From: Chrysomallon squamiferum
Taxonomy: Eukaryota > Animalia > Mollusca
Assembly (NCBI GenBank): GCA_012295275.1
Contig: CM022671.1
Location: 26,598,001-26,662,000, forward strand
Length of the DNA stretch: 64,000 nucleotides
Reading direction: 5' to 3'
Shown here: positions 4,615-44,400 of the stretch, piece after piece
Layout of the letters: each line of letters begins with the position of its first letter
How positions within the stretch are numbered: the stretch's first letter is position 1
Translations under genes and position numbers: made by a program
Notes under the pieces: model-generated
What the model saw: only the letters and a program-made list of their open reading frames with translations
The model's database searches: none
Told to the model about the DNA's origin: nothing

Positions 4615-4694
<80 letters not shown>

Positions 4695-6708: not shown

Positions 6709-6743
<35 letters not shown>

Positions 6744-6812
6744 TTTTCTTACTTACTTTCTTACCTAGTTATTTATATATTTATTTATTTATTTTCTTAC
6801 TTACTTTCCTAC

Positions 6813-6843
<31 letters not shown>

Positions 6844-8704: not shown

Positions 8705-8738
<34 letters not shown>

Positions 8739-10115
8739 GTTATGATGACAGAGATCATTTTAAAAAATTATTTTTTTCAATTTTTACAGGAAATAGTGTG
8801 TGCAGTTTGCACTACCCTCACAGTGAAACAGACACAGTGGGCAGCTCCCACAGTACCAGTAGCACCCACTCAGGTGCCCACCACACCTTACGAACATTTC
8901 ACCCACAGCTGACAAACCACGACCGGTGTTGTCAAGGTGGGGATTGTGAAAACAATTGTGAAAACTGTGAATATAATAGAACTTTAAATGGAAGCACTCA
9001 AAAACTTTCTCACTTGAGGGCTCCTAGTGTTTCTTCTATACCAAGTTCAAGGTCATCAGGTCTTGGACTTCCGGAAGGAGATTCTGGTTGTCAAGGACAC
9101 AAAGTGAACTCTTCTTCATCCACAAAGCCATTAAGTTTTGCAGGTAAAAGAAATATTTAGATTTTGTTATAATAGTATTCCTCTTTTTTTTTGTTAATAT
9201 TATTTTTAAAATTATATAGAATATTTAAGAGAGGTTGTTACAATTTTTTATTATTTTTTTTAAAATTGCATTTAGCCAATAGTTTTAAAATATATTCAGT
9301 GTATTAGTTTATCTTAGTAATTATAAAATTGTGTTTTTTTTGTAATACACTTTGTATTTGTTCAGTATATTTGCTTAATTATGTAGTGACTATTTTAATA
9401 CTTTGGTTTTTTTATTTTATATTTAATTTTATTATTATTATTTTTACTATTAATTTTACTATTATTATTATTATTATTATTTGTATTTGTTTTCTAAATG
9501 ATATTAAAATGAAAACTGTATTTTTCAGAAATCCCAGACAGTGCTGTGTGTGACTGTGATCATGATGTGACACTGTGTAGGTGCTCAGCGCCTCGCTCAC
9601 CTCCAGTTCACATCACCTGTAATCACCTGGAACAGTTGCAAAACTCAGCAGGTAAGCTTGTCAAAACTCTTGGGTTTTTCTGATGTCATTTCAGCTTGTT
9701 AGTTACTTATTTTATAACCGATATCTCACTGAGTTTTGCATTATAATCATTACTGTTTGAGAAATCATTGTATTTTGTTTTTGTTTTATAACGTTACCTT
9801 TAATTTTTCTGTTACCTGCTGTAGAATTGCATCACACAACCAGACTCCTCATGCTAATTACACACTGTGTTGTCTCTGATTGCAGATATCAAGCACAAGT
9901 TAGAGAATTTACATCACAAGCTGCCCAACGGGACGTGGCACGGTCACTTTCCTGTGGTCAGCAACGCCGCACACGACCCACACCACAAACAGTGTCCAGC
10001 TGGTCACTCGACGGCCAAAGTGAAGTCACGCGACCCCGCGAACAATTCGTACACTGCCATTCCAATCTCACATCACAGCTACAAGAAGAAAAACTGCCCG
10101 GTGGTCAACGTCTAG
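3055..10115 (+). CDS. LRIG: Leucine-rich repeats and immunoglobulin-like domains protein (LRIG1/2/3, lambik-like), 5'-partial, 11 coding exons in window
   Basis: join(3055..3198,4717..4941,5451..5614,5938..6080,6219..6393,6930..7211,7490..8053,8339..8506,8790..9143,9529..9651,9886..10115); all GT-AG, phases consistent, about 856 aa. LRIG signatures: [72 protein letters not shown]. Confidence 0.95.
4585..4692. repeat. (ATT)n microsatellite
   Basis: Seen directly; similar tracts at 2420-2483 and 13300-13379. Confidence 0.9.
4717..4941 (+). CDS. LRIG: LRIG exon (three LRRs)
   Basis: aacag|...CT|gtaagt; [42 protein letters not shown]...ENLRDL. Confidence 0.93.
5451..5614 (+). CDS. LRIG: LRIG exon (LRR C-terminal cap)
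   Basis: ttctag|...A|gtaagt; [20 protein letters not shown]...[13 protein letters not shown]...FTC. Confidence 0.93.
5938..6080 (+). CDS. LRIG: LRIG exon (Ig1 N-half)
   Basis: ttccag|...ATG|gtaagt; [28 protein letters not shown]...FQWKKDNM (absent from the ORF track). Confidence 0.92.
6219..6393 (+). CDS. LRIG: LRIG exon (Ig1 C-half)
   Basis: cacag|...G|gtaagt; [39 protein letters not shown]. Confidence 0.92.
6655..6920. repeat. Compound (TTTA)n / TTCTTACTTACTTTCTTACCTA repeat in an LRIG intron
   Basis: Block ttattttcttacttactttcttaccta recurs, with variants, between ATTT runs. Confidence 0.8.
6930..7211 (+). CDS. LRIG: LRIG exon (Ig2)
   Basis: tgcag|...G|gtgagt; [55 protein letters not shown]...[11 protein letters not shown]. 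Confidence 0.95.
7490..8053 (+). CDS. LRIG: LRIG exon (Ig3, transmembrane, juxtamembrane)
   Basis: tttag|...C|gtaagt; [10 protein letters not shown]...[20 protein letters not shown]...[14 protein letters not shown]...[27 protein letters not shown]. Confidence 0.95.
8339..8506 (+). CDS. LRIG: LRIG exon (cytoplasmic tail)
   Basis: ttgcag|...G|gtaaag, phase 1-1; [38 protein letters not shown]... Confidence 0.85.
8790..9143 (+). CDS. LRIG: LRIG exon (cytoplasmic tail)
   Basis: ttacag|...G|gtaaaa, phase 1-1; [24 protein letters not shown]...KPLSFA. Confidence 0.82.
9529..9651 (+). CDS. LRIG: LRIG exon (cytoplasmic tail)
   Basis: tttcag|...G|gtaagc, phase 1-1; [40 protein letters not shown]. Confidence 0.75.
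9886..10115 (+). CDS. LRIG: LRIG terminal coding exon
   Basis: ctaat branch candidate plus ttgcag acceptor, phase 1; [21 protein letters not shown]...[13 protein letters not shown]. An alternative acceptor at 9825 is possible. Confidence 0.7.
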
Positions 10116-10292
10116 CGCTGGCTGCTGGGAAGACTCTTCACGAACACACAACACTTTGTCTGTGATTGGCTGTGCTTCTCTTTGTTTCTGTTTGTTCTCT
10201 AACCAAGTCTGTGATTCGCTGTTGTATTCTCTCACAAGAGTGCCATCAGTTGTGCTGAAATCCAAAAACAGGTTTTCTTTTTAAATATAATA

Positions 10293-20574: not shown

Positions 20575-20761
20575 CTAGCCCACAACTTCGAGATATTCGG
20601 TGGATCCTCCGATGTCCACGCTGCTCAGAAGGGGCTGGTTTTCAGAACTCTCCCCACCCCCCTCCTCTGTCTGGGTGAAACGGGTCACCTCCTGGTGAGA
20701 TTTGTGGAATGTCGGTCTGTCTCCTGGTGTTTCTGTCCAGCACTGCAGCATCAGCTGATAG
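20575..20761 (-). CDS. Met-like terminal exon 26 (kinase end and tail)
   Basis: tgtag|[18 protein letters not shown]...[25 protein letters not shown]. Confidence 0.92.
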
Positions 20762-23700
20762 CTACAACAGCAAAATAATCTTTATTAAAGCATGAGAGAA
20801 TGTTTGGAGTCATATTTTAATATAAAAGTGTTTGTAAGCCTTTTTGTAACACGTTCATGGGTCACTCTTACTGATTAGCAGCATGGGAATTATATATTTA
20901 CACCTTCCCATAGACAGGACAACACAAAGCTGACAAAAACATGATCTCTGATAAACGACTGGTGGAATTGACAGAAGCTAAGAATGACTGATTTCTGATT
21001 ATTAAAATACAGTAATTTTCTAACCTAAGTTTATCTTAGAACTACAATTTATCACTTCATTTATGATAATGTTACAATTCTGATCTTGGATTTTATAACA
21101 GTTTTTTTTTATATAAGCTTCAGTTATCATCAGATACATCTACAAAAAGACTTAATTTTAATTAAGTGATAAAAACTTTATGTAACAATAAATAAGTAAA
21201 TAAACAAAAAGGCATATTTATAACTTGAGAAAATAGTGACTTTTAAATTCACAGATAAAAAAACAATTAATTATATGAAAAATTCATGCAAAAGTTGATG
21301 GAATTTTTATTTCTTATGATAAAACTCGACTTACATATTCTCAGGGCACTGTTTAGGCTTCCTCATTCTCTTTCCACTTTTAAGATAACTCTTCAAGTCT
21401 CCACTGTCAACATCTGGATATGGAGTTACTCCCCTTGTCATCAGTTCCCACAGAACAATGCCAAATGACCACTAAAGAAATAAAAAGTTTAATAATTCAT
21501 TAAATATGAAAAACATAATAACCATGGAATAACAAAGATAAATATATTAATAAATTGATAATCAGTTTCTGATAGAAACTGGTTCACATAGGACATTATT
21601 ATTATTCATTTTAATCTTTTTAAACACTATTTTTATCCATTCCATTTGTTGTCTTTCCACAATACTTTCACTTCTAAAAGCAAAAGGTAACAAAGTGTTT
21701 TGTAAAGCAGTCTCACCACATCAGACTGTGATGAAAACTCAAAGTTCTCCAGTGTTTCCAGTGCCATCCACTTGTACAAGTCCTTCACTGTGCTGTCTGC
21801 AGAGAAGAAGAAATCTCTAGAAAACAGGCTGCTGGTGATTCCATAATCTGTCAGGTGCACAGTCTTGTCCTCCATCACTCTGATAATAATATCAGCAGTA
21901 ATGATGATGATGATAATGATAAATATGATGATGATGATGATGATGATTATAGTAATAATAAAAATAAATAAATTAGGACGAGAATGATAATAACAAATAA
22001 TAATAATAATATTGTTATTAACATATGCAAATGTGATTTATTATTAAAAATCTTTTTTTAATTTTTTTGTAAAATTTTAAATTTATACAAGAAGGATACA
22101 GATATAAGTAAAACAAACAAACGTACATGCAGTTTCGTGCAGACAGATTTCTGTGTACAATCTTAGCCTCTGTGAGGTAAACCATGCCCTCAGCCACCTG
22201 TCTGCCAAAGTCCAGTAACTCCATTACAGTTATTTCCTGCAAACACAAAACATGAATAAAATTAAACACTTACTAGAGTGTGTAAGTAACTCATTAAAAT
22301 CAATAACTAAAAAAAGATAAATAAAATTAAGTTAACGTAACGTACAACGAAATAATTACTAATATTTATTAACTTAGTGTATTTTTATTGAAATAATTTG
22401 TAAATCTCTAGTGAATTAAACACAATTCTGAGTTAGAGATTTCCAAATTATTTCTAAAATTTATCTAACTACATTTTGTTGTTTTAGGTAATGTCAAATT
22501 CTAAGCTTGTTGGAATATAAATATTTTGATGTTATAAAAAGCATTGAATGTATTTGAGCATTTTCTTTCTCATATTACATGCATACGCATACATACAAAA
22601 ACACACACACACACATTCACATTCAACACATACACACAATTGTGTTCTTTGACAAAAATGCACAGATTAAGGTAATCATCCAAATATCAGCATCAAAAAT
22701 GATCTGCTGTGTTCACATACTTTAGAAGGTTCTCTGATGTAACTTTTGAGATCTTCGGTTGCCATGAACGGCATGATGATCATGGGGTCCTCACTGGTGG
22801 TGACACACACTCCAACCACAGACAGGATGTGTCTGTGCTGAAGATTCTTTAATGTAGCAGTTTCTTGTAGAAACGTCTGCATGGCTTCAGCCTCTGCGTT
22901 CTTACCTGATGAAGGAAAACAATAAATCTTTATCTGTTTACTACTCACTCTATGAATTTCCTAAACTGAGCATGATTTGTTCTTTTTGGACAGGATTCCA
23001 TAATTTTTTTATTAAAAAATGTTTTGGGAATCACAGCACAAGTAAACAATATTTTCTTATGTTAAAATTTTGACTATGGCGACAAAAGATTCATAAAAAT
23101 GGCATGTAGAAACATTTAATCTGTTATTATATCATTAAAAGTAAAACTCACTGATGAAAATTAATAGTTCTACACATGTATCTACTTAAAGTATGGAAGA
23201 CTGTTTTTGACAACATATTTAAAGTATGCAGCTCTCTATCACACAACTTACAGTTTAGTGTTTTAAGAGCCACTTGCACAGGTTTGTCTTCTCCACTGCG
23301 TTGATACTGGGCTTTATACACGGCTCCAAAATGGCCTGAAAAATTACATGTTGAAATAATTAATCATCAGGATAAAATATATAATTACAAACAAAAAACA
23401 TTACAGTATGAATTGGGTTTATCACTTACAAAGAATTCAAAATGGTTACTATAAAATCTACCATTTAATTTATAGATGAATAATAAATGATTGTGATATA
23501 GCGTTAGATACAAATATTTCTGTTCAAATGGAAAAACATATATCCTCTCTTTTTCTCATATGTCTGTGCATTCATACAACACTAGTATGAATGTATCAAT
23601 ATTAACAGATTAGATCAAAGCAGTTCTAATCAATGGAAGTAAACCAGAGAAATTACATACTGCAGAGTCCTCATTTCAGTAATCAGCATTGAATCAACAT

Positions 23701-26700
23701 ATGGCTGGAAAATGACAGCGTGGATTATCAAGGGCTCACTGTATAAACAAACAGCAGTCTGTGATTTTTACCTTTTCCTATAAGTTCTCCGATGTCCAGC
23801 CTGCTCCTGGGTATCAACATGGAGCTGATGCTGTGTCTGACAGCAGTGTCCTCAAATTTACCTAGCAGCTCAGCAATGTACGGGCCAGAATCTGAAAACA
23901 ATAATAAAACAAACAATTTGTAAAAAATAATAATAAAGAGAAAGTTTCATCTGAAGCAAAGAAATAAAAACCACTGAAATAAAAATAACCAAAAATCTGA
24001 ATACAATAATAAAACAATTATTTTTACAGAATTTATAGAGAGAATGGTATGTCAGAGTTTAATAACCTATTGCATGCTGTCAACAGTCAGTGTATTATGT
24101 TCAGATAAATATATTTAGATGTTTGAGAAAGGAACCAGAAGATAACAAAAACTATATATCATACTGAAATATTCTAATCAGAATTTGCCAATATAATTTT
24201 ATTTAGGATGAACATATAAAGCAAACAATGAGTGATAGATAGTTAATAATCCAAACTTTACCTTTATCATCCAGGATCTGTCCATTCATGTCAGCTTTGA
24301 CCGAGACGTTATTCATCCCAATCTCTTCCTCTTCCTTCTTTCCTTCGTAATCTTTCAGCACATCAGGAATGTAGTTTTCGCTTGGTCCATGTTTGCGGTG
24401 GCGTCGAATCACGCAGATGGTGAGAAGGATTATGATGGCCAGGATGGGCAGCACCACTCCCAGAATAACACCAAGTGCAATAGGCTTGTCCGAGCTGGTA
24501 ACTTCGTAGTACTGAAGATACCCTACATCTGCCTTCAGATTGCCTATATGTACCTGGTGACAAACAGTACAAACATTTACATATAAGCATACAAATATAG
24601 CCAGAGCAGCATGATAGCCACTCAAGGGACGAAGCAAACTTGGGTGTCATACAGAGTTAAAACAATAAAATTATTCTGGAGAAACATAAAGATGAATGTC
24701 ACAGACAAGTTGTTGTCATATTCCAATGCCTGTGACAGTATGTAGTATCAGAAATCTAGGTAAACCAATAACTTTTAAACAGCATACAACAGTACAAAAA
24801 TAGTATTCTCAAAAGGAAGATGATATAAATGGAAACACATTAAAAAAAAATGTCAGATATTTAATTCAGATAAATATAATGCTATGATATCAGTTTCTGC
24901 TTTGAAAGCAGTTTGTCAAATCATTTTACATCAATGTCTGGCTGTTCTGAAGATTTTGATATGAATGTAAAAATGTTAATTAGATAGATCACAATGCATT
25001 AGGTCATGAATATACACACTGCAATAGGTCATGAATATATATACACTGCAATACATGATGAATATAAACTTACCTCTACTACAGCCTTTCCCATGTTGTC
25101 CATGCCAGCAGGCTGCTCTGGAGGTTTACATGTGATGGCTGTGTCAGTGGCAGCAGGGTTCTCACACAGACTGAGTCCAACATACACCTTAACATTGGAA
25201 ATGAGTGGATTCACTGTGCGGAAACGACCCTGTGTAAGAGAACGTAGCAGTCTGCATTAACAACACAAAAGAATAATATATAATCCATCTCTACACTGCA
25301 GTGAGTATAATATAACATACACTGGTAATAGATGGTGCAGTTTCAATAACAGCAGAGAAAGATATGAAGACACAGTCAGACACAGATAAAAAGATTGGGT
25401 GTGTTTGTAGTCTACGTATGTAGTGGTGTACTAGAAAGGGAGCCTGTGTTTTTTATTTCTTTTTAAACTTAGAATTGTAGAGACAGCATGAAAGGATGAA
25501 AGTTTTTAACCATCTAATGTATCATTATTAAAGAAAATAAGAAAAAACAATAAGAAAAATGTTCTGTTAATTAATCTAATTAAACTACCATATTACACTA
25601 TCAGAGCAAGAAAGCATAGATGGAGTCTTAATAATGGGTAGAAATATTGTGACACATCTAAATTCAACATTACATACCTGAATGGACAACCAGTCATCTT
25701 TGACAAACTTCTTTATTCTGTTGTCTCCTGGGAAAGAATATATATCTGGATCAGGGTAGTACAGGATTGGACCAAATATTGTATCATGGGAAATGTTCTT
25801 CAGAGACATGACACCATCCATGTTGAAGCCATAGTGCACTTCCAGTGGACTGGTCTCAGTGACGTTCACTCCTGGGTTGATGCCAGGTACAGGACACTGC
25901 AACTCAATTTCTTGTTCAACTGTACATGCCTGTTAGTTAATAGATTTAAAAAATAGAAAATAATGTTTAAAACTTTATTTCTGTTACTTTAAGGATCTAC
26001 AACAACAACAACAGTAACAGTAACAATAACAATAATAACAACAAAATAATATTAAAAATTATATTTCTATTCTTTTCTGTATCTTTAATTTAAAATAATA
26101 ATTATAATAATAATAATTTTTTTATTTTTTAAAAACCCACACCAAACAAACAACTAAAGATATGCCTAAATTAAACTAATGGATAACTTAACAGAAGAGT
26201 ACTCATTTTTTCAGTTGGTAGGTTGATGTTATGTTTTATTTCTTAAAATTAATTTCTAAAATTGAAATTAAATTCATTTGTCACAAACTGCTCAGACATT
26301 TACGACAAATTAAAGTCATCATTATTACTATTCAACATATGAAGTTTTGGCTGGTGACTTACAGTTTTGTAAAACTTGCCACCGTATGTAGTGAAGAATT
26401 CTGGTTTCTGAATCAAGTCAAGTCTTTGTCCCACAACTGTGATGGTTGTTCCACCACTGTCAAAAAATTCAAATTAATGAGAATGAGGTTATATGCATCA
26501 GTTAAAGATATATGCGATACAGATTTTATGATTTCAAAGATAAAAACTAATATGGAATTTTAATGAATGTGTTGTATCAATATTTTACTGAGTATTTTTG
26601 AAAATGACATATTAATTAACACATTTTGTGTGAATATTAATATACTTCAGCAATATTTCAGACAAATATTAATATAATTATCTGTAGAATACAGAGATAC

Positions 26701-27915
26701 CAAGGCATATTCAAAATGAAGAATAAAGTCACACTCAGTATCATTTTCTAACAGTATGCCTATCAAGAAAAACCTGAATCATAACTGGTCCAAGATTGAA
26801 AAGGAAGAAAAAAAGAAGTAAACTTCAGATCTAACATAGTTAATTTAAAGCCAATAAAATAATATTAATTTTCCAAAGATATTTTCTAAGAAATGTTGCT
26901 GTTATCTTAATTCATACCTGAGTATACTTCTCTTGGGCTCTATCATGGTGATTGCTGGGTCATCATGGTAAGTGAAACGTTCTGGTACAAGTTTCTTCAG
27001 TCCTCCAAAACTGACCTCCACATCCACATCATCTGTACTGGCTGTTTGTCTGGATGTCCGACATTCCAGAGTTGTCTTGTTTGATCTGAATTAACATATA
27101 ATAATTAATAAAATATCAGTGATTTTTAAACATATTTTTCTAAGATGCAAGAAAAAAAAAAAAAAAATGCTCCTATTGTTACTGTTTATTTAGTTGTTTT
27201 ATCTTTGTAATTTGAATCAAAGAAATTTTTGTTTATTAGTTATCATCAAATCAGCACATACCATACAGGAACAAAATACACAAAGGTTAAATAAAGCAAA
27301 CAAACACATCTCATTCTGGTTACTTACTTAATGAACTCACAGACCTCTCCTCCCACAAAAACCATTCTTTGACTTCCTGTGTTCATGTTGCTACCATGGA
27401 TACCAATGACAGTACCTCCAGATCGGGGGCCCTTCTTAGGTGTTATAAATTTAACTTGTGGATCCTGCAATTAAAATGCAATTTGTTTTTTTACTTCAAA
27501 TTTCTGAAGACAGAATATGAATAAAATTATAAATATATCAATAAATAAATAAAAATAAATATTGGCAGGTTATTATTGGAGCTCTAAGTTCTAACCTTCA
27601 TTATTATGTGTTATTAAGTGTTATTATGTTGCTTCTTACTGAACAGGTGTTTACTGGATCATTCTGACCCTCGTTATTATGTGACATGTGTACTTGAAGT
27701 TTGCAGGTTTTCAACAGCAAAAAACTCACCACAAAGTAGAAAGGTGTGTCTGATTCAGCAGAGTATCTCCCGTTGACCAGCACAACAATATTTCCTGACT
27801 TCTCATCCTGCGATATGTCTGTCTCACATGTAAACCTGGAACAGCAGAAAGAGTTATAAATATCCTCATCAAACAATATCTCAGTATTTGAAATAAACTG
27901 CATCTGTGTATGTGT

Positions 27916-27953
<38 letters not shown>

Positions 27954-30457
27954 AATATATTTACAATTTAATACTCAGTGTATGTGACTGTGCAAAAACA
28001 AATACCACAAATATCCAGGTAAACAAAAAAATAAAAAAATTCAATATAAAATACAGTATACACATTAAAGCATTAATGGGTTTTACTGCTACATCTTCCC
28101 ATTAGGAAGGACTCTGTTTTAAATTAATATTATCACAGATGTGATATTTTAAAACTTGCAGTGAAAACATGCTTCTGAAATGAGAGAAACAACATACTTG
28201 GATGAGGGTTGATAGTGTTCTCTGTGAATGGTGCACTTAACCCCAGCCACAGACACATTGCCAGTGATATCTGTGTACTTTTTACCCAGGTTGATTCCAG
28301 TCACTGAAATGTTGGTCTTTCCATGAATTGGTCCAGTTGTTGGGCTGAACTGAAAATTATTAACAGATCAATGAATAACAAACAATGTCCTTCATTTTAT
28401 ATATGCATGTAAGAATGCATGCACTGCTTTCTTTTGTTTATATATAAACACATACATTTGCATATATAAAAATGTAACACACACACATACAAATAAACTC
28501 AGAAATAATAGGAAAAATAAAGACAGCCAACAAATAAATGATGCACAATTTACTATTTAGTACAGTACATTTTAAATGCGACATCATGAGATATATATGA
28601 ATTTATTTTCTTATGAAAATTTCAAATTGTTATTCTTCTTCATATTATTATAACTTTACTAGAGTTATCACTAGTACTACTACTACTACTACTGCTATTG
28701 CTGCTGATACTACTGCTATTACTACTATTACTACCACTACTACTTCTGTCATTACTGCTACTGCAACCACTACTAATGCAATTATCATCATTTATTTACT
28801 TCACCTACCCTAAGTATCTGTGGGTTAGGACAAGGCGCAGACCTGTCCAGCCACTGTTTGATGCAGTATCTCTGCAGAGTGCACTGATTGTCACACCAGC
28901 CACACTGGTATTCCTTGTCCATGCTCAGACACTTACCACAGTTTGTCACCATCAGAGGACACTTGTAGATTCTCACTGTCAAATACAAATAAGTATTTTC
29001 AAACGTGTAATATAAGTAATTATTTTTTAAGTTTGTAATACATATGATTATTTCCATGGGTGTAATACATATTGTTATTTTTAGAAATATATTAGATATA
29101 ATTACTTTCATGTGTGTAATACATATTGTTATGTTTGTCTGTAACATATAATTACTTCAATGTGTATAATACATATATTTACTTTCATGTATGAGATACA
29201 TATAATTACTTTAATGTGTGAAATACATATATTTATTTTCATGTATGTAATACATATATAAATCTATAAAAATAACTTCAATAAATCTTTTGCCATGAAC
29301 AATTTTATTAATGTATTAGAAGCTCAGCTCTCTATTATACTGTTACATAAAAAGTAGGTTTTCTTGATTTATATGTCAGACAGAAATATTAAATAAATAA
29401 AGATTATGGGTTGTAAGACAAGTGTGATTAATGAAAACACACAATGGATAAAACCCAAGAGATGTCTACAACCAAAGAAATAAAAAAATGAGATTTGGTC
29501 ATACAGAGGTTGATATGATTAATCAGTCCAAGAATGTCTTTACCTACATCAATCACAGTTAACGTTCCAATGAACATTATTTACGTTGGTTAGCCTAAGC
29601 CTTTCAAATGCATGTTCTGGCAGACAAACACAAGAATAAAATGCATATAAATTTCTTGGTATTGCCAGATCATTATTACCTTTAATGTTAGAAGGGTTCC
29701 CCAGTGGAAAACCATTCACTCCAGTCAGCACTTTGAAGAAAGCTGTCACAAATGGCTGTTCTAAGTCATCTGATTCAAACTAAATAAAAAAAAAAAAAGA
29801 AAGAAAGAATAAAGAATTTAAAATTTAATAGTATGAAACCTCAGAGGTGAAGTAAATGGTATCACATTACATTCGCACACACATAACACAGTAGGAAGCT
29901 CAGTGTAAAACCACCCATGTTGTCTGATGTAATATAAATTACAGTTAACAATGTCATGAAATATTAATAGTCAAATTTTTGACAGTAATTAAATCTATGA
30001 TTAGTTATGAGACTTAAAATGGATTTTTTGGTTCAGAATAAATTAAACGAAATACAGTGAATGGTTATATTCATTTTTTGCTCATTTATAACATAAATCT
30101 TACTTTTAATTGTATATCTTTCAACCATTATAAGAAATTAAATGGCTTAAAAAAAAACATTATCATTCTATAGTAACAATATATTAATAAACTGCATTAA
30201 TTCTTACTGCCATATAAAAATTACATTATTTCAGTTATTTGGAGTAAAAATATGTTAAATAACTGACACCTAATTGTGCATTATTAAACAAGTGGATGAA
30301 TCATTAGTTTATACAGCTTACTAAATGTATAAACTAGATGCTTAACCATAATCTGTGGTATATAGAACCAATCACAAAACCACATATAAATAACAAAATA
30401 AATAAATAAAGTAAATAAGTAAATATATACTATATGTAGTGTGTGTTTGGTGGTGTG

Positions 30458-30499
<42 letters not shown>

Positions 30500-33400
30500 G
30501 TGTCTGCATTCACACTCTGATATCTGAAAAATTCCTCAGCTGTATTCTAGAATTAAAATGGAGGAACATTATCAGACAGGTGATACATTTTTTTTTTTTT
30601 TAAAGAGGAGACAGGTGAAATAAATCTGATATAAATTTGAGCATATCAAAGCAGAGCACTGCAGCAGAGCTGGGTGAGAGATATGAAGTAACTGACATCA
30701 GAGGCTGGGTGTGCGTGTGTCTATCTCATCAGACAATCTTACACCACTGCAGCATTTATTTAAAGTTTTCACTTTGATGGGGCAACAGTCGATTGTCTAG
30801 ATAACCAGTGAGGCTAACGTTTTATCTTCATGACAGTGTTGATAGATAATTCTGATCAGGATGTTTGCATTTAGAATGGATAATGGGATAGAATGCGATG
30901 AGAAGATATTTGCATTTAGAACGGATAATGGGTTGAGAAGATATTTACATACAGAATGGATAATGGGATAGAATGCGATGAGAAGATACTTGCATTTAGA
31001 GTGGATAATGGGATATAATGGGTTGAGAAGGTATTTACATTTAGAATGGATAATGGGATAGAATGAGTTGAGAAGATGTTACATTTAGAGTGGATAATGG
31101 GATAGAATGGGTTGAGAAGATGTTACATTTAGAATGGATAATGGGATAGAATGGGTTGAGAAGATGTTACATTTAGAGTGGATAATGGGATAGAATGAGT
31201 TGAGAAGATGTTTGCATTTAGAATGGATAATGGGATAGAATGGGTTGAGAAGATGTTACATTTAGAATGGATAATGGGATAGAATGGGTTGAGAAGATGT
31301 TACATTTAGAATGGATAATGGGATACAATGGGTTGAGAAGATATTTACATACAGAATGGATAATGGGATATAATGGGTTGAGAAGATGTTAAATTTAGAA
31401 TGGATTGAGAAGATATTTACATTTAGAATGGGTTGAGAAGACATTTACATTTAGAATGTACAATGGGATAGTTTAATTAAAATAATTTTTACCTTGACTG
31501 GATTACAGGTGAGACTGGATGAGGTGATGGTTCCAGGAACAATATCAGTTTTTCCAACATAGGTAAACACACATTTCACATTGGAATTCTGATCTCTCTA
31601 CAAAAAGGAATAGATATTAGTGAAACACTTTAATTCTTTCCACGTTCCAAATATCAATGTCTGCACTAAAATTATTATTAAAATAAAAATAAAAGAGCAA
31701 TAGTAATAATAATAAATATAATAACAGAACTAATATAATAATAAAAAATTAATAATAAAGTTATATTCTAAAAGTGAATTAAAACATACAATCTTATTTA
31801 ATAAAATAAAATATCCAAAATGTGTTTTTAATAATATGGTGTCAGATCTTTAATTTCATACACTTAAGATAAAACAAAAATTAAATTAAAAAACTAAACA
31901 AGATGGGCCTTTATTATAAAAGTTACTGCCCTTTTTAACGTACAAACTCAAAAATAAATGTTACAAAATAATAATGTAATTTTGAAAGATTGTCCGATTT
32001 AAATAATAAATTTAAATGTTAATGCTTAACAATCCATATTTAATGTCAAACATTATATGTGTTATTGATGTGATTTGAGAGAAAACCTTGTATCAGAATC
32101 ACAGAAGATTTTATCAGCTATCAGTAAAAGATCATTTAAAAGCACCTTAGAGAGGAAATAACAGACCATAGCTGTTAATAAAACTATAAGGAAAATAGAT
32201 TGGTATGGTCGGTCAACAGACCAATATGCTTCAAGAAAGAACCAGTAGAAAGCATTCTACCCCTCTGTTACATTCTGCATGTTCTGACTAGAATTACTGT
32301 ACTTGTACACACAGCTCAAACTGACCTGCAGGTTTCTCACTCCCACTGCTATCTGTTTTTCCTCTCCAGAGTGAACCAGGATGTCTGTATCTTGTCCAGA
32401 CGCTTCAATTCTTGGACAGATGGCAGCATCGGTAATTCCAAGAGAAGACTACAATTATAAATTTCAACAAAACTTTAACAGTTAAAAAAATAATAGTTAA
32501 TTAAAACAAATAAATTAATAAAATAAAATAAAATAAAATAAAATAAAGTAAACAGAATAAAAGAAATAAATACTGTAGTGAGAAACGTATCTAATCTTAT
32601 CAAAAGAAACAGCCAATCATGTAATGAAATAAAAATTCAAATATACATAATCCTGACAATATTTTTAAAATTTTATTCCATACATTAGTGAACTTGAAGA
32701 CATACAAATAATTTTTAAAATTTTTAAATATTTTAGTTAAAAATAATGTATAGAAATGTTTCTATTTGAAACCAAATTAAAGAACATTCAAACAGACTCT
32801 TTCACTCCTGAAAATAGATACTGAACAATACAGTCTAACTTGTGTATGCACCCTCACACACCCGCACCCACACACACCCCCACCAACCCCCCCACACACA
32901 CACACACCATATACACTTGAAAGCTATATTAAATATGTAAACTGCTCACCTGACAGTTAGAATCGTGTTTCTGACAGGTGTTTGTCTCGTAGCACCATTT
33001 GCACTTGAAATTGCTGCTGGCACAGCTGGTGCAGTTCTCGTGAACTCGACAGTCAAACATTGGCACACTGCGAGTCACTATAGACCTGCCCTGAATGTGG
33101 AAGTGCAGCATCACCTCCTGATGATCTGAAACAGAAATATCACTGTTCTGTTACCTCACACCGTATCATATCAATCAATATTACACTATACACTGTATGA
33201 TATATAATATTTATATCATTTTTTTTTTTACCGTATGTATTTTATCATTTAGTATTAGTTACTATATTGGAACACATCACTGTGATAGATAATCGCATGT
33301 GATCACACATTTTACCAATCCAGATATTAAAATTTCAAGTAAAATAACAGACTGTATAAAAATATATTTTTATTAGGCGTTTACAAATCCTATGATAAAA

Positions 33401-34629
33401 TATAAAGTCATTTAATAATATTAATACATTCTAATGTATAAATAATAAATATAAAACAAACTCATATCAATAAATATTAACATTAAAATTTAAAAAAAAA
33501 TTAAACAATTAAAAAAATAAAAATAAAAATATAAATATAAATATGAAACTGTATCATATATGAATTTAGATACATGTATTTTTTAAAAGACATATAATAT
33601 CAAGTTGAATATTTGCTTTGGACCAAATCTGATTACTTTCAATAAACAATTCTCCTAACTGCAGGACAGTTTTAAGCTTTAAGCAGTCTACAAACTATGA
33701 ACATGTAGAGGAAAGAAGACAGGAAAGCAAGCACACCAAAGCCAAACATCTACCTACTCACCCTTACCCTGAGGAATGCTGGGAAGGTGCTGTTTCTCTG
33801 GCAGAAGGCAGGTGATGGTTTTGTCATGGATGGAAGCAGATGTGTCGTGTTTCTGCTGTCCAGCTTCAAATCGACATTTCAGATCAAGTTTTGACTGATT
33901 CTCTACAGATACTTTCTCAAGTTCAAATGAGATCTGTGAAAATAAAATTTAAAAAATTGATATAATAATAAAATTTGAGGTTTGTAGACCATACAGAAAA
34001 CATGCATTGAAATCTAGTGGTTTATTTCAGATAATAAATATATAATTAAATAATTAAATAAAAAGAAGATCCTGGTAATGAAATGATTTATAAATTAGTT
34101 TTGACAACAATATAAACAAACATCTTTAAAAAAATAAACAAGACTAACAATCACACTGCTCTCTCTTATATGGCTAATAAAATGCTTGGGACTCTCTGTA
34201 GGTGTGTCTGCTTCTCACAGCATAACAAGGAGTTGGTTTTTTTTTCAGGCCTTGGGGTAAATCTGCTTTCCACAGAAATAAAATTTCGAGTGAATATATC
34301 AGCTTATTACAGGAAAAAGGTAAATGCATTAGGTTCCACTCATTTTTTTTTGGCCAATCATTATGGGTCCTATGAGTACAAACATTCTGAGAAACTGTTT
34401 CTATGGCCACTGACCTGTCCTCCAGACTTTCCATTCTGCAGACTCTCATAGCTCAGGGTGTCTGGTTGGATGTTGGTGATGCGGGCACATGATTGGTCAG
34501 CTGATGGCAGCCAGTGAGGATGTACTGCCGATGTCTCACACCTGTCTCTTGTAGAGCACCTTGCACAGGAGAGAATTAAAATTCTTAAATCATTCATTTT
34601 AATAAAAATATACAATAACATAAATGAAA

Positions 34630-34660
<31 letters not shown>

Positions 34661-37600
34661 AAATAAAAATAAAATAAATGATCAACAAAAATAAAACAAC
34701 AACAAAAATGAAATTCTTAGTTCTTGATAAATAAATCAATTGTACTTTTGTTAAAGAAAATAATAAAATTTTAGAAAGTGCTAAGAACATTTTTTTATTT
34801 CCATTTCTTATCATTTCAGACTTTTACCATCAGCCTTTAAAGACTTCCTTAAGAAAAAATCTATGCAAACATTTATGGTATTGATATTAACAAATGTTAT
34901 ATATATAAACACACAAACATACACACAAAGTGATGACATTCTGACACAATTTGTGCTTCTTGTTTGCCAAACTAGTATGTTTTCTGCCAAATACGTTTCA
35001 CAAAATCTTTCTATGTGTATCTAAATAGGTTAGATGATATTTATGATCTTTAGTTAGTTTGAAAAATAAGTCAAATGAAGAGTTACTCTTTCCTGATAAG
35101 CAACAAATTATCTGTTATACATATACATCTTCCTACACACTACAATAAATAGATACCACAATATTTAATACATCTGGCACTAGATGAATTACTGAAAACC
35201 AGTTTGTATAAATAAGAAAGTAAATATTATAAAGATCTAGCTAATAAATTTGTAAACATATACAAGATGCAATCTTAATATCATGAAATGGATACAAATA
35301 TTTGGCAAAACCTTTCTTCTATCTCAGAATTTATTCTGAAATACCTTTCTGTGAAAACTTACCTGTTTTGCATTACACACCACCCACATGTGTTGTCTGC
35401 TTTGGCAACACAATCAGAACAAGTCAGATGTTTCTCACAGTGCAGTATTGATATCAGTGACACCTGGAACAAAATCAGTTTTAAATACAGTGTGAAATTG
35501 TTAAAAGCCAACAAACAGGAATGCTTAAAACATTTTTCAGGTAATTTCTGAGAAAATTTCACAATTATAAGAAGTAAACTTATCAACCATGAAAATTTCA
35601 AACAAACATTTTAAAAATATAATTTATTGACTATCACAAGTTACACTCAAGCAGAAACACATACAAAAAACACTCACTTTTTCTGTTTCTCTCACTTGTA
35701 TACACATAGATACACATACATACAAACAAACAGCAGATGAATAAATATTTAAATAGTATCTGTGTAAACAGTAAAAAGAAAAACACTGATACCTTTGATG
35801 GAGTTAGAACTATTAGTTTCTGTAAATCTTTTGCAGGCCACAATTCTTTCACCGGTCCCCTGATATCAACCTTTAAACTGGACAAGATGTTTGCTGCATC
35901 TTTAGTAAGTACAACCTAAAATTAAATTCAAATTTTTATTATGCTGAATAAATCGTAAACCAATCAAAAAATATTAATCATAATTATCATTACAATGTGT
36001 CAGTTATTTTTATTCTACTGTAATCAGTGACAGTGACAGAAGAAAAGGAAGCCACTACCACCTTTCTGTTAGCTACTTGTATTTTTAATGTTTTATAGCA
36101 AAAGAAATATACCCTCTCATAAACATAAAAACACAGTAATGATAAACCACAGAATATTGTTGTGAAACAGTCTAAAGGGACCATCGACAAAGTCTGATCC
36201 TGTGAACCACCATGCTTTAGGCCAACTTATTTTTTCAAGATAATGTAATAACATATATAATTTGTTACAGTAGTAATATTTATTACTGCACCAATATACC
36301 AAAAATAAATGCTGGTGTATCATGATCTCAGTGTCTGCTACTGTTTCAGTCCAGATGGTAAAGAAAAATGGTAAGGAATTGCCATGTCACTCTCAATTAA
36401 TGTATAAATAGAGATAATGATATGTCATAATAAATTACCAAGACAACAGTTCCACATAATTTACAAACAGCTTAATTATTTCGTGAGTTACTGAAAGAAC
36501 AATACCAGTTAACATACAAAAATAACTGATAACGTCATAACAAATTACCACCTAATGTGAAAATAGTGTAATTTTATATAAAAAACAAACAAATTCCATG
36601 ACAACTATCAGCTAATCTATAAATAGTGTAATTTCATAATTATAAATAACTACATCAGCTAATGTAGAAATACTGTAATTCTACAATGAGTTACCTTGAC
36701 GAGAGTACCAGCCGATGTACCAACGTAACCAATCGTGTTTTCCCCCTCCTGCCGAACAAGAATGGACATTGCTGATGTATCAGGAAGAACAAGTTTGGGT
36801 GTGGCTGTCACTGGCTCTGTTCCTTCTATGGAGCTGTAGGCTTCAGCAACATCAGTCTGGCCACAGTAGTTCACAGCAGCTGACTACAGTGGAAAAACAC
36901 AGAGCATGTCACGCATTTTGAATCAAATATACCCAAATAATCAAGTCACTGAACAGGGATAAAATGCTGTACTGTAAAGCAGTTAAAGAAAAGATGTCAT
37001 AATTAAGTAAATAAATTAACACTACAGGAACAGATCTTTGCCTTTAAATGAACTGATACTCAACCAATAAATATCTAATGACATATATAACATTGTTTGT
37101 TAAAAAAAAAAAAAAAAGCCACAAATACAAGTTTAAAATAATATTTCAGAATTTGTCACAATGAATTCTAAATTTCAGCATCAGAAAATATTTTAAATGT
37201 CTGTATACATCATTCTGTGGTATTTTTTCTTTACTTTTTATATAATTTATTATTTAATTTCTTTAATTATTTATTTTATATTTATTTATTTATTTATTTA
37301 TTATTTTTAAAATATTTGGGTTTATTGTTATACATGGATCATTGTGTGTCTGCAGTTCACCATATGAATCAAGCCATACTTGATCAGGCCAACAACAAAT
37401 GGTCTCAAAGAACAAACCTCCTAGGTATTGGGGAATCTGACTATAAGATCATACGGTCGCAGTCTACAAGAGAACACAGCTGTTGCAGTGATAAGATTAA
37501 AGACAACCCTTGAGGGTACTTGAATTGAAAAAGTTTAATTTTCAGAACCATCAAAAAAGAGAAAACAAGACATCTGTTGTAAGGCTTCCGTCCAAAGAGT

Positions 37601-37859
37601 TCTTAAGTTGCAGTTTTCATTATCTCATATATGGATGACATTCATATTAAATATCGTGTGCAGGATTTAAAAACAAGGTCTTTAGTTTTAAGAAAGAAAA
37701 AGAATATAATAGTCCATGTATGACGAATGAACATTAGTGAGTTATATTATGCTTATAGTTATACAAATTTCAGTTCTATAAGAAATAAAGATGATAGCAC
37801 TGAATAATTGATATAAAAGTTTATGTACATATGCATGTATATATGCTTGTGTGTGTATA

Positions 37860-37903
<44 letters not shown>

Positions 37904-39346
37904 TTGTACTTATATGAATTGACATTCCAAATCATTTTCTTTGTCTAAATCAAGGAATAGGCTTGTTTTCTCTCTTGTGCATATACCTTAGTATCTAAAA
38001 TGCATATAAACATTCACTCAGCAGTATGTATATGCTATACAATTAAAAAAGTACTCCTGGTATGCTTTGAAAAACACTTTGAAGAAATGCACCAAACTTT
38101 TTTTTTTTTTTTTTTTTTGTAGGTTTTAATTTCTTCAAAAAACTACAAAGACGTCACATTAACATTCTTCCAATCCCCGAGGACTGGTCAGCACTCCATC
38201 TCAATTGAGGCTTGTTAAGACTGAGCCATCTTTCATCAGGCTAATTATAACTGATATCCCATGTGTGTAATATAAGTGTGATAAACCAGACCTCATTATG
38301 CTCAAGTGCTAAACTGTACTACAGCTCAGCTCCATTCACCCAGCACTAACTGTTCCCTACCAGAAGATGGTTCAAATCTAGCTGCCTGATTAGATAAAAA
38401 GAAAAACCTGAAATCTGCTGGGTCAGTGGCATGTGCCACCAACCAATCACTTTCAGTCAGACGACTGGATTTAGCTTTTGATTCTTTGATAGTGCTTCAA
38501 CTGTTAATACAGCAAGTTAAGTAAAAGTTACAAAGATTTAATTCTGAGACAAATAAACAGCGACAAACGAATGTGAATATGTATGAAATAAAAGGTATTT
38601 GCTGGCACTGACACAGGTATTCTTTAAAGTATTATGACGAGACAAGACTAAATTTCCATTCTTTATTATTAGGAAAGATTGGTTTTAATATTTTAGAGAA
38701 ATATAAAGACCAATGTCCCAGAATGTAAACATAAAATAGAAGATATTATGAGTGATGAAAATAAATGGCAACATCCATATTTCATCATTAGGAAATATTA
38801 GTTATGAATTTTTTACAGACAACGACCCATCAGGGACGTTTATACAAAATAGACTGTATTTGTTTGCATTGCTTCATTTATTCTTTGAAGCATATCTAAA
38901 GCATTTCAAAGTAAAGAAATGCTCAAACACGTCAAAGTAATGATTAATAAAAATGATATACCTAAATTACATATTTTAACTTAATCACGTCTTCTGAATT
39001 TGTGTTTTTCACAAGCAAGAAAAAGAATCATGTAAAAAAAAATGTCTTAAATAGAGGTGAAGTGTAATGTGTGTTTTTTATTTTATAATCAGCCAGTATT
39101 TGGTGAGGAATGTAAGTGTAAATACAAGGTGACTTGGCTGACAATGTCAAAAATGCAGTGGTAATGTTATCTAGAATGGAGATTTTTAAACTCTGTCAAT
39201 ATTATAATAATGGAAAATGTATCATGAATGAAAACGTAAAAACTTAACATATTTATTTAGCATAGTTATTGTAATTTTTAACATATATATATGTCACATA
39301 ATTATTAATATTTAACTTTAAATTTTTGTTGCATACATATATATCT

Positions 39347-39411
<65 letters not shown>

Positions 39412-40971
39412 GTATTTTACCTAATGTTTTTAGAATTTAAGAATTTTTATCTGTTTCATCTGCTTCCACTTCCTTTCCCATGATAAAATTTTCTTTGACG
39501 CAAATTAGCTACCGTGTTCAATTTAAGTCTTACTTGACTAAATTCTCTGTCTTACTTTCTTAAATGAATCGTGTCACCTGTTACAAACAGTTGAAGCAGA
39601 ATTTCAAGGAAATAGGAGAAAAAGGTAAAGGAAGATTCAGCTTCTTTTTTCTTTTTAAAATAATAATAATAAAATTCTTTAAAATTAAAAATGTTTCAAA
39701 AAAATCAGTTAACCTCTTTTCTTTGGATTAACAAATTTGTCCTTTATATCACTATTTCTAGTGTACCCATCAAAATCATTGGTATGTGCTGCTCTGATTA
39801 TGAGATTAATGTAAATGATTTTTTTCTATAATAGCGATAATATCAATATGACACTCACTTCACACTGACATCAGCAAATTATTTTTTTTCTATTTTTTAT
39901 TTTTTAAAACCTGTAATATTAAACTCTGCTTAATATGTTACACAAAATTATTACAAAAATAAGGCTGTCAAACACATATGCATGCATGCACGCATGCACA
40001 CACAAACACACACAGAGGAAGAACAAAAATAAAATAAAAGCACCCACCACATACATTAACTTCAAGTCTCTATCTAATTTACTCATGCACTTTTGATTCC
40101 CACCCAGGGTAAAATTATAGTTTCAAGTTATCTTTCTGAAATGTATGACATGGAAGAAAATACACGATTTTAACCTGCATTAGACACCTGTAATCAATAT
40201 CTCAGGTGTATGTAGCTTCAAATTACTCTCTTGTTAGAAATGAGAAAAGGTAAAGTTTTACTGATACACTGAAAGTGAAATCTAAACATTCCTACACCCA
40301 GAAACACGAGAAACGTTTTACTTCAGGGAGGTAGAAATATGTTAGTTTAAGTAATTAAGTCATTAATCTTGAAAAAATATTATACCACATATTGGTAGTT
40401 TCTGCTAGTAGTAAAGAAAATTAATAACAAAATTTTTTATATGTAAGATTTGTTTGCAAAAACAAAATCAAAATCAAACAATAAAACAAAAGTATGAAAA
40501 AGTAAAAACAAACAAAAATTTATTTATTTAAAAAATAAAAAATCACATTAATTTTTTTTTTTAAATATATTGTTCCTTAGGGTCAAATGACATCTATGGA
40601 CAAACTGAATTGTTTTTCATTATAAATAAAATAATATCTAAACTTTAACACGAAGAAAACTTTTTAAAATCAGTCAAAAATAAAAATATTTTTAAAATGT
40701 CTCCCACATCTACCAATAACCTTTACGCACCCAATATAAAAATATATATAAAAAAAGAATTAAATTAATACATCATTATAATAAAAAAAAACAAATCCCT
40801 TGAAGTCTGTTATAATTATTTTCATCTTCCCGGTAACCAATCACGCCTGACAACATTTCAACGAGGCGTTTTCTCATTAACCCTTTTGATTCTAGTAACT
40901 ATAGGGAACGGCAGATCACTGATGTCAAGATGAAGAGAATGTGTATATGTGTGTGAGCATGTACATGTAGT

Positions 40972-41006
<35 letters not shown>

Positions 41007-41431
41007 ATGCACATGCACATGCATGTGAGTGGGCACCACAGAGACCAGTGTGAACTATCAGTGCTGTGTCTGCCTCATTCTGACTGTATTCACTGACTTA
41101 TCATCCAACCATCTGAGCTACTGGAGAGTTCAGAAAATTACTTTTTTTTTTCTTTTTCTCCTCCTCTCTTGTAAAAGTAATGAAGTAAAGAAAGTGTTTT
41201 TAAATCATAAACATTGCACTTTTCTTTCTTTTTACTTCTTTCAAAAACAGAACTGAAAAACAGATGTATACTAAGGTAGACAGAGTTGAAGAGAGAAATA
41301 ATAATTGAGAGGGAAAGATTATTCAAAAACAGATTAGAACTTATAATGAAGCCCTCCATAATAATTAGGAAAATATTCTTTATTTAAAATACATTATTTA
41401 TTTTCAAGTATGAAGGATTTTGTTTTTTGTG

Positions 41432-41479
<48 letters not shown>

Positions 41480-44400
41480 GTAGACATACAGATACTTTAA
41501 ATTCAAATTGCATGTGTGTATATGTGTGTGTGTGTGTTTGTGTATATATGTATATGTATGTATGTACATATGCATTTTTATTTGATTGCCTATGTATATA
41601 TGTCTGTTGAAGGTATATATATATGTATGAAACTATGTATTGATTATTTTATATTATTTTATAAAGATACACCCCTATTACAACACATTGTAAAGTGTAG
41701 GTATATGTCACACAAGTTGTGTTCTTAACCATAGACAGGTCAGGTACGTGTACATACATCAAACACATCAAATACATACATGTATGTACAGCTGGGAAAG
41801 GTTAACATTCTAAACGCTTCACAGTTATGCAAATCTTTCCTATTCTTTTCATAAAACATATATTACTCACATTGTTCTTTCCACTTTGGTGGAAATAAGC
41901 AATCAGATTATTTTCTTTATGTGCAAAATGAAAACAATCTGTATACCTTCTAGGCACTCAACATTGTTACACTTCTGGACACTGAGACAAAACAATGTAC
42001 AGATTATGTAAAATATACCTGCCTCTATTACATATATGTGTTGTGTGTGTGTTGGTTTGTGTATCTGTGTTTATATGTGTATATGTTATATACATATTGT
42101 ATTTATTTAATTATGTATTTGTAAAAGGTTCATGAGAATGGTAATTAAAAGTTTTATTTATAATATATAACACACACACACATATATATATATCATGATA
42201 TATATATATATATCATGTTTCATAATTATAAATTAAAAACAGTTACTTTTGGATTCTTCCTATAAAAAAAACAACAACATTTTTTTTGTGAAATGTAATC
42301 ATTATTTAAAAGAAGAAAAATTTCATGTTTAAAAATAGAAAAATTAACAAGAGAACAAAAGAAAGCTGTCTTGTACACCCATATTTTTATCACATAAATG
42401 ATAAAGTCTGTGTTTTCAATGTGTAATCTCTGCTTACATCTCACAAATACTTGATAAGCAAAAACTAGTTAAAAGAAATGGCCAAGGTGCACAACTTAAG
42501 AAAGTTTGTTATTGTAACAATATATAGTAACAGTTATTGTGTTTATGTATATATATATATATGGAATGTCATTAGAGCAATATCAGATATTATTGCATAA
42601 TATAAAAGGGGATATATTGCAGTCCCTAACAGGGATGTACTTATTTTTTTAAAAAGACATTTTTGTATTGGGTAAAAGGGAAATATTACATTTTGTAATG
42701 TGATATACAGCATTTTATAAAAGGAATAGATTATGTTATATAAAAGGGATATACTGCATTTTGTAAAAGAGTATAATACAACTTATAAAATAGAATATAT
42801 TTTGTAAAAGCATTTATTACATTTTGTAAAAGGGATATATTGTTTTGTAAAAATGGTTATACTGCATTTTGAAATGATAAAAATAGTTTATTTTGTGGAC
42901 ACAAGTTTATATTAACACTGAAATTGGTGGGTTTGGAAACATAGTATTTGTCATTTATCAATTGTCCATTAATGTCTGGACTAAAAGCTAATTATTTAAT
43001 CATATTAAAATTATAATAAGTTTTTAATATAATTTCCTCAACCTAAACTCCTGATTTCTTTGTTCAAATATACTTGTCATAAGTTGAGTACATATCAGTT
43101 TAGACATTCAGAACTAAAACCTTCAGTAATATCAGAATACTGTTCCTGTGAGGTAACTATTTATAATTGAGTAATACTATCATCGTTTGTTACAAAATAT
43201 CTATTGTTAATATACCTTTAAATATTGATACAATATCATAATTAAAAAAAGTCTTGAATGAAAGAAATTTTTTTTTTTTTTATACTGAGATCTTTCATCT
43301 TTTTATCAGAAATATTTAATTACCACTTTTCTTTCATCACTTCATAATTCTAAAAGATACTGTTATCATACTGGCTCTTGTTTGCATTTTTAATGATGAT
43401 GATAATTACCAAAAAAAAAAAAAAAAAAAAAAAAAAAATGAAGAAGAAGAAGAAAAAAAAAAAGAAAAAAAGAAAAATAAAATAAAATAAATTATAGTAA
43501 CAATAAATTAAAAAGAATTCAAAATAAAATGCAGAGCACAAAACCATCTGGGGGAATTTAGCCCAGACAATCCTTTTTCCACCTCAGTGCCATCTAGTGT
43601 AGCAGTATGATGGAAGTGACAACGAGGAATGTGCAGAAAACAGATTACTTGGACTAGGGTTTCTTTCTGTTGTGTTTGTGCACTTAATGACAAATATCGC
43701 AGCATGTGTCATAGACAGAGATCAGACAATGAAGCGGAGAGGATGTTTCAAGTGAGGAAACACGATAGACTGGATCTCTTCCAAACCTATCTGTCTTCAA
43801 CTCATCTACTGTTATCACAGTTCATGCTCCTCCTCGCTGATAAAGCATGTGTATTAAAGTAAAAGATTTCCTGATACCAGTTCACTTTTTTCTTCTTTTT
43901 TTTTAATTTTTTTTTTAAAACAAAACCTTTTTAATTATTTTCTAAAAAACACAAAAAAATCCAGCCACATTTATAACATGAAGCAGGTGATATTTTTATC
44001 CAGCTAAAATGTTTTTGTTTGAAGTTAAGATAAGAAAGGTTTAATGTAATGTAGCCAAACTTGTTTATGTTTAAAACTTCCATGCATTCCTCTTTTATCT
44101 CCTTCATTTCTTTCTTCTTTCTTTTTTTTACAAATATATTTTACTTTTAACATCTTTAATAAAGTTTAACAGAACTATAGTGATAATTCAGGAAAAAAAG
44201 AAAAAAGGAGAGGAAGTTTTAACTTGATAATGCAAATGCAGTTAACCTTTAACTGTAAACTACGTATTTTATGAGTTTATGCTACATTAACGCAATGTTC
44301 TTTTATTGCAAATTCATAACTTTAATGACTTTCAAAAAACTATCTAATGTCAGAATTCTTTGGAGCCAAAGATAGATTACCGCCAAACCTAACCAATAAC

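Follow-up and report, generated by a model that had tools for sequence, protein, structure and literature searches.

The minus strand of the 64 000-nucleotide stretch of Chrysomallon squamiferum DNA analysed here (the window) encodes a tyrosine kinase in which asparagine occupies the place of the catalytic aspartate, joined to an ectodomain of the plexin type. The locus raises the question of whether this substitution marks a genuine and selected pseudokinase, to which family the receptor belongs and what such a receptor might do. An initial annotation had proposed a MET relative that is selected, still able to bind ATP and catalytically impaired, in the manner of HER3.

Gene structure and family assignment

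The coding span (Table 1) comprises 26 exons that give a single open frame of 1596 residues, with every intron bounded by GT-AG; the window as a whole is AT-rich animal DNA. The protein consists of a signal peptide, a Sema domain, three PSI domains with IPT domains, a transmembrane (TM) helix (residues ∼1195–1220), a tyrosine kinase domain (residues ∼1300–1560) and a short tail, and an exon-by-exon Pfam scan (12 exons of this gene) recovered Sema (PF01403), PSI, TIG and PK_Tyr. The kinase is encoded between about 23800 and 20680. The initial annotation had assigned it to 21717–23335, which is indeed kinase sequence but holds exons 21–24 only; the motifs GKGHFG, VALK, FLQE, HRN, DYG and DLYKW lie in the gene model where it had put them.

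Contig sets from three DNA runs and two RNA runs match the asparagine codon AAT, and orthologues of the gene share the change, so the codon is genuine, as had been claimed, and not an assembly error. Across 22127–22235 the contigs of runs X1, X3, X4 and X8 show one difference only (22201, synonymous) and those of RNA run X9 show none, and no difference is listed for X1, X3, X4 and X8 in the activation-loop exon. This support comes from five runs out of two studies, and some of the DNA runs may be the source of the window itself. RNA contigs skip the modelled introns and join the kinase exons at the modelled sites (joints in the exon 16–26 region). Among the differences listed, all nine coding substitutions are synonymous, and two further ones from the comparison of DNA and RNA contigs were read as synonymous by hand. 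The gene is intact and expressed. At the end of exon 6 there are two donor sites 6 bases apart (33762–33768), and relatives have pairs of isoforms that differ by two residues (1595/1597 in Gigantopelta, 1585–1588 in Patella), which together suggest a conserved micro-alternative splice.

Table 1. Features of the window (strand and basis where given).
Feature	Position	Strand	Basis or remark
Met-LP gene	20575..45768	-	gene model, Pfam, every exon matched by Gigantopelta P0112, RNA joints
Exons 1–3: signal peptide and Sema, residues 1–453	35793..45768	-	model, PF01403
Exons 4–18: three PSI (three CxWC) and IPT/TIG, full plexin-type stalk	25074..35463	-	Pfam, alignment
TM helix with GxxxG..P motif (G1199, G1203, P1207)	24407..24484	-	motif in 40/40 rows
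Gly loop GKGHFG, intron-split	23778-23325	-	gene model
VALK	23273-23262	-	β3 Lys1333 at 23262..23264, kept in 36/38
FLQE	22873-22862	-	αC Glu1351 at 22862..22864; Glu in 7/38 clade rows
HRN (CAC AGA AAT)	22155-22147	-	Asn1428 (22147..22149) for HRD Asp; Asn in 36/38
DYG	21848-21840	-	DFG position, exon 24
Exon 24: DYG, 13-residue activation segment with F1454/F1458/F1459, P+1 DLYKW	21717..21879	-	
C-terminal tyrosine motif around Tyr1591, ITSM pattern TxYxxV	20584..20601	-	sole tail tyrosine
LRR, Ig and TM gene	about 4535-10165	+	
Three short overlapping frames resembling a decayed transposase	60569-61048	+	by eye
Minisatellite, 44-bp unit × 10.8	30860-31458		intron 9
Minisatellite, 27-bp unit × 10.4	28982-29258		intron 10
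Minisatellite, 28-bp unit × 17	56858-57324		upstream

The LRR, Ig and TM gene stands tail to tail with the kinase gene. It is most like LRIG, with LRIG1 as the best PDB match of a single domain type after titin; LRIG1 negatively regulates MET and EGFR. By eye, the three overlapping frames resemble a decayed transposase of the hAT/SPIN type.

The closest relative of the protein is Gigantopelta aegis P0112 (1346 of 1596 residues identical; 89% in the kinase), and gastropods, bivalves and cephalopods were found to have full-length orthologues, which databases list as 'plexin-A' or 'HGF receptor'. One of these, P0016 (XP_012936725), is the Aplysia Met-LP1 of PMC6374515, groups with the window protein in one starred clade and has the catalytic loop HRN. 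Met-LP, a full plexin ectodomain combined with a MET-type kinase, was named by Junqueira Alves et al. in 2019 (PMC6374515, excerpt). The window protein has the plexin ectodomain (Sema, three PSI-IPT and further IPT), the TM helix, a MET-type kinase replacing the GAP domain and orthology to Met-LP1 and, as judged by sequence, is a mollusc Met-LP. Its architecture is therefore not new; the initial annotation had known of no characterised MET-family pseudokinase with a plexin ectodomain. The main text of PMC6374515 has no match for 'pseudo', 'inactive', 'kinase-dead' or 'HRD', Met-LP is treated there, in the excerpts covered, as a receptor tyrosine kinase, and catalytic loss is likewise absent from the Met-LP passage of a 2022 review (PMC10084454).

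By sequence and by fold, the closest kinase family is MET/RON (PDB entry 3PLS and MET entries). MET and RON have a Sema domain, one PSI and four IPT domains, whereas Met-LP has three PSI domains (three CxWC) and extra stalk; the Met-LP rows of the alignment have two to three CxWC and a stalk match, while most MET rows have one CxWC and no or a marginal stalk match. A furin-type RxK/RR site is absent from the three Met-LP rows checked, unlike in MET/RON. Plexins carry an intracellular GAP domain in the place where Met-LP has a kinase fold, and names such as 'plexin-A4-like' reflect the ectodomain alone; the best PDB sequence matches of the Gigantopelta orthologue are the ectodomains of plexin-A4, A1 and A2.

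Catalytic residues and the origin of the mollusc branch

Residues were counted in 38 kinase rows of the mollusc clade, leaving out P0041 and P0045 (gene models without the catalytic loop) and P0040 (a second Mya model), and compared with 36 active MET and Met-LP rows. The HRD aspartate is present in two clade rows versus all 36 active ones, and asparagine takes its place in the other 36; an apparent third aspartate, in P0045, comes from misalignment. Also depleted are the HRD arginine (18/38 versus 36/36), the αC glutamate (7/38 versus 36/36; a site at the 90th rate percentile, with Asp in Gigantopelta), the activation-loop arginine (1/38 versus 34/36) and the P+1 leucine and proline (4/38 and 3/38 versus 35/36 and 36/36), and the DFG phenylalanine position is tyrosine in 31 rows. 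All 38 rows keep Gly2, Gly3, the HRD histidine and the catalytic-loop asparagine, as well as the structural APE glutamate, αF aspartate and αH–αI arginine; the β3 lysine persists in 36 and the DFG aspartate in 31, and lysine, asparagine and aspartate occur jointly in 31. No clade row has the full catalytic set. A kinase is a pseudokinase by sequence when at least one of the VAIK lysine, HRD aspartate and DFG aspartate is lost (PMC13519141, excerpt), and each of the 38 rows lacks the HRD or the DFG aspartate. The substituted asparagine ranks with the 2% of kinase positions that evolve most slowly and is thus fixed, not drifting; selection was judged here from protein site rates and within-species variants, which stand in for dN/dS. 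With an intact MET paralogue in molluscs, these observations support the proposal that the protein is a MET relative with a plexin ectodomain, under selection and impaired in catalysis.

Two other features of the initial annotation fared differently. It had given prominence to the replacement of all three activation-loop tyrosines, which is not supported as a selected family feature. The window protein does have phenylalanine at F1454, F1458 and F1459, which correspond to MET Y1230, Y1234 and Y1235 in the alignment with MET rows (MET numbering as in the initial annotation), but this triad occurs in one of the 38 rows, that of the window; the Y1235 site is tyrosine in 32, including Gigantopelta, the Y1234 site is tyrosine in eight and phenylalanine in 19, and the Y1230 site is phenylalanine in 31. 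Orthologues therefore share HRN and not the triad, which reflects relaxed constraint on a loop without phosphate-reading residues together with one species-level change. In exon 24 the arginine and aspartate after DFG are lost and the P+1 loop is degenerate, and the activation segment is 30–58% identical to that of Gigantopelta in Met-LP versus 81–97% in MET (nine pairs). The αC glutamate, which had been listed as retained, is an incidental retention of the window protein. Taken together, the window kinase is very probably catalytically impaired. With an HxN loop, Gly loop, lysine, asparagine and DFG aspartate, it carries the sequence signature of a HER3-like ATP-binding pseudokinase, and ATP binding by this protein is a fairly probable prediction.

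The ATP site has eroded in sub-lineages: the DFG aspartate is lost in seven rows, the β3 lysine is threonine in two unionids, the β2 valine is threonine in 17 rows and the hinge glycine is changed in 24, so ATP binding cannot be universal in the clade. Two scallop rows have HGD but GFG and no αC glutamate. Among P0021, P0023, P0015 and P0038, which are scallop and unionid proteins, the scallops have the catalytic aspartate, probably regained, and have lost the DFG aspartate; the unionid mussels lack both the β3 lysine and the DFG aspartate.

In the kinase tree the window protein falls within the starred 38-row clade (support 100/99), which divides into cephalopods, bivalves and gastropods, with P0028 branching at its base. 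HRN was also found in four further named molluscs (Solemya, Lottia, Candidula and Elysia chlorotica), and HRD and DFG in every one of 11 named Met-LPs from outside the molluscs, which represent four species (Paralvinella, one; Lingula, three; Patiria, six; Glandiceps, one). The rows nearest to the mollusc clade are HRD-intact Met-LPs, including that of the annelid Paralvinella (86/89, rooted tree). An origin by mollusc-specific duplication of MET was rejected, in that grouping the clade with mollusc MET gave an AU p of 0.004; together with the HRD-intact neighbours, this indicates an old Met-LP gene and no recent copy of MET. The change from aspartate to asparagine would then have taken place at or near the base of the molluscs, early in their history, on a sampling of mollusc Met-LPs that covers gastropods, bivalves and cephalopods.

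Several observations concern the wider family. In the unrooted tree a starred branch (95/92) parts all Met-LP kinases (mollusc, annelid, Lingula and starfish) from all METs, the proteins that bear on this split being P0126, P0140, P0182, P0189, P0221, P0043 and P0130; with an outgroup, the Met-LP kinases surround MET as a grade with weak support. The split, as it appears in these alignments, questions the published proposal of two independent kinase acquisitions. P0274 of the hemichordate Glandiceps talaboti is an HRD-intact Met-LP and widens the family past the two clades named in 2019. Proteins of chelicerates and a millipede group with MET (P0044, P0046, P0049, P0078, P0150 and P0152); excerpts of PMC6374515 report that no MET was found in Ecdysozoa. 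P0097 is a partial protein that resembles Met-LP and sits on a long branch; it retains HRD and DFG with a degenerate Gly loop, αC and catalytic loop and is possibly a second, independent decay.

Structural model, membrane segment and proposed role

The cytoplasmic domain of Gigantopelta, modelled with AlphaFold from a 37-row alignment, has a complete kinase fold (pLDDT 89.5). The closest structures are MET with ATP (3DKC; Z = 35.1, r.m.s.d. 2.4, 302 residues aligned) and RON with AMP-PNP (Z = 34.4). Several lower-ranked matches, which are tied within 1 Z, are titled inactive and give a hint that the Met-LP kinase may adopt an inactive-like conformation.

Nine orthologues are 33–57% identical to Gigantopelta in Sema, 46–64% in the stalk, 69–100% in the TM helix, 55–88% in the juxtamembrane region and 47–67% in the kinase. 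Among ten genera the mean identity of the TM helix is 78%; in these genera that of MET is 31%, with the Batillaria MET TM excluded. Its GxxxG..P motif is present in all 40 rows and was seen also in two annelid-type active Met-LPs, so it predates the loss of catalysis; excerpts of the literature describe GxxxG motifs as TM dimer motifs of plexin and neuropilin. The tail motif YxN is found in ten of ten mollusc METs and in the two annelid-type Met-LPs, and is missing from 38 of 40 Met-LP rows. An [ED]Y pair near the end of the tail occurs in 30 of 39 rows, and the nine without it are all bivalves of one branch, which implies that parts of the clade can do without a phosphorylated tail. The pattern TxYxx(V/I), by which the ITSM is defined (PMC12151841, excerpt), fits 12 of 39 tails, including that of the window protein.

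A canonical MET with all motifs is retained in molluscs, as judged from the alignment; in a tblastn search of the window with two METs, the Met-LP exons were the only matches. Among species in which both genes lie on contigs longer than 35 Mb, Met-LP and MET, to judge by equal lengths of the longest contigs, share a contig in nine of ten (Gigantopelta, two Patella, two Haliotis, Mercenaria, Dreissena, Mactra and Pinctada; the exception is Octopus vulgaris). In Gigantopelta and Patella caerulea the two genes have neighbouring identifiers, in Dreissena widely separated ones, and the linkage may be a mere trace of an old duplication. Excerpts of PMC11728269 describe mammalian MET as associating with plexin-B1 and as trans-phosphorylating the pseudokinases HER3 and ROR1. 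A complex prediction for the MET and Met-LP kinases of Gigantopelta, run without alignments, scored 0.00 and speaks neither for nor against pairing.

Clade-wide loss of catalytic residues, conservation of the nucleotide-binding core and of the TM and juxtamembrane regions, and the intact MET paralogue lead us to consider it somewhat probable that Met-LP is an enzyme-dead co-receptor or scaffold that pairs through its TM segment with an active kinase and is phosphorylated on its tail by that partner. A ligand, perhaps a semaphorin, would bind the plexin-type ectodomain; excerpts of PMC6374515 assign no ligand to Met-LP, and semaphorins are the suggestion of its authors. The receptor would then pair through the TM and juxtamembrane regions with an active kinase, for which MET is the likeliest candidate. 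The dead kinase domain, probably nucleotide-bound in gastropods such as the window species, with ATP as a structural cofactor of an inactive-like fold, would serve as a docking or allosteric module, and the partner would phosphorylate the tail tyrosine, which in turn would recruit SH2 proteins. More tentatively, MET and dead Met-LP may form a pair that parallels EGFR and HER3, in which an ATP-bound semaphorin receptor couples semaphorin to MET while the non-mollusc orthologues are still active enzymes; we regard this extended version as doubtful.

The comparison with HER3 and the JAK2 JH2 domain holds for the change from aspartate to asparagine, the dispensable αC glutamate, the retained Gly loop, lysine and asparagine and the mostly retained DFG aspartate, and for HER3 also in the coexistence of an active paralogue. 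Both proteins have a catalytic-loop asparagine, no αC glutamate and ATP/Mg binding (PMC13519141, excerpt), and since HER3 has histidine at the αC position (PMC13259870, Table 2, excerpt) the loss of this glutamate does no harm to the comparison. HER3 belongs to another receptor tyrosine kinase family with another ectodomain, so the shared substitution is convergent; with its plexin ectodomain and a kinase closest to MET/RON, the window protein is not a member of the ErbB/HER family. The DFG motif varies in mollusc Met-LP (DYG, EYG, DYV or GFG), unlike in HER3, and the single tail tyrosine contrasts with the many in the tail of HER3. The Met-LP data hold no sign of an asymmetric activator dimer like that of HER3. 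MET and RON keep HRD, DFG, the activation-loop YY and the YxN tail, which the window protein lacks, and the Met-LPs of annelid, brachiopod, hemichordate and starfish have intact catalytic residues, unlike the predicted pseudokinase of the otherwise orthologous and identically built mollusc branch.

Alternatives to the co-receptor reading were weighed against the same evidence. An assembly error or a decaying gene is extremely improbable. One X8 RNA contig lacks two bases at 25197 in exon 18, either an allele or a contig error, and the kinase evolves faster than MET; however, two other covering runs contain these bases, the reading frame runs uninterrupted through 26 exons, the listed coding substitutions are synonymous and the asparagine codon occurs in five runs, and the orthologues from three mollusc classes and the RNA contigs refute this explanation. 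A weak but functional kinase, in which clustering would permit self-phosphorylation, for example at the Y1235 equivalent, is improbable too: that site is mostly tyrosine and the lysine, asparagine and DFG aspartate are mostly kept, and low activity has been reported for the HxN pseudokinases HER3 and JAK2 JH2, but the same source doubts its functional weight (PMC13519141, excerpt), the phosphate-reading arginines and P+1 loop are degenerate and the window protein has no activation-loop tyrosine.

Met-LP might instead be a decoy or brake that captures semaphorin or dampens plexin/MET complexes, possibly through an SHP-type phosphatase at the ITSM-like tail, although we think this unlikely. A whole plexin ectodomain without a GAP domain or a working kinase would suit such a role, as would the loss of the YxN motif from a tail that keeps one tyrosine, and plexin-B1 can inhibit MET (PMC11728269, excerpt). 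A pure decoy, however, needs no kinase fold conserved over three mollusc classes, and the ITSM match spans few residues and is missing from the majority of rows. Off-track is a plexin partner, and a receptor of the PTK7/Off-track kind, that is, an ATP-free, autoinhibited plexin co-receptor with no need of phosphorylation, is a less likely possibility still. Like the proposed Met-LP, PTK7/Off-track, ROR and RYK are receptor pseudokinases that act as co-receptors or scaffolds, and the repeated erosion of the ATP site and the tail tyrosine lost in one bivalve branch speak for the resemblance; in PTK7, ROR and RYK the ATP site is occluded and the loop is autoinhibited in the manner of the insulin receptor (PMC13259870, excerpt). 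Those receptors have unrelated ectodomains, keep the catalytic aspartate and carry their changes in the Gly loop or DFG (PMC13259870, Table 2, excerpt), whereas the mollusc clade fixes asparagine and keeps Gly2, Gly3, the lysine and mostly the DFG aspartate, which is the HER3/JAK2 pattern.

Implications for receptor pseudokinases

The Met-LP family and receptor pseudokinases were known already; a pseudokinase branch of Met-LP across molluscs was not found described in the literature searched, in which two relevant papers use the name Met-LP, most subscription papers lying outside the search. No relative of MET is among the eight human receptor pseudokinases that excerpts of PMC13259870 list. 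If the present reading is true, mollusc Met-LP would add a member of the MET family to the receptor pseudokinases, fixed across gastropods, bivalves and cephalopods, and the aspartate-to-asparagine solution of HER3 and JAK2 JH2 would have been reached independently. The labels 'plexin-A' and 'HGF receptor' are corrected for genes that have neither a GAP domain nor a canonical kinase. Scallops and unionids offer natural site variants for testing nucleotide binding, and a part played in guiding axons or patterning tissues could be studied in Aplysia, Octopus and oysters, which are tractable. Active relatives of the same domain plan survive in other phyla, so that the steps of conversion are directly testable, and mollusc Met-LP, set beside them, would show in nature the states before and after a receptor turned into a pseudokinase.
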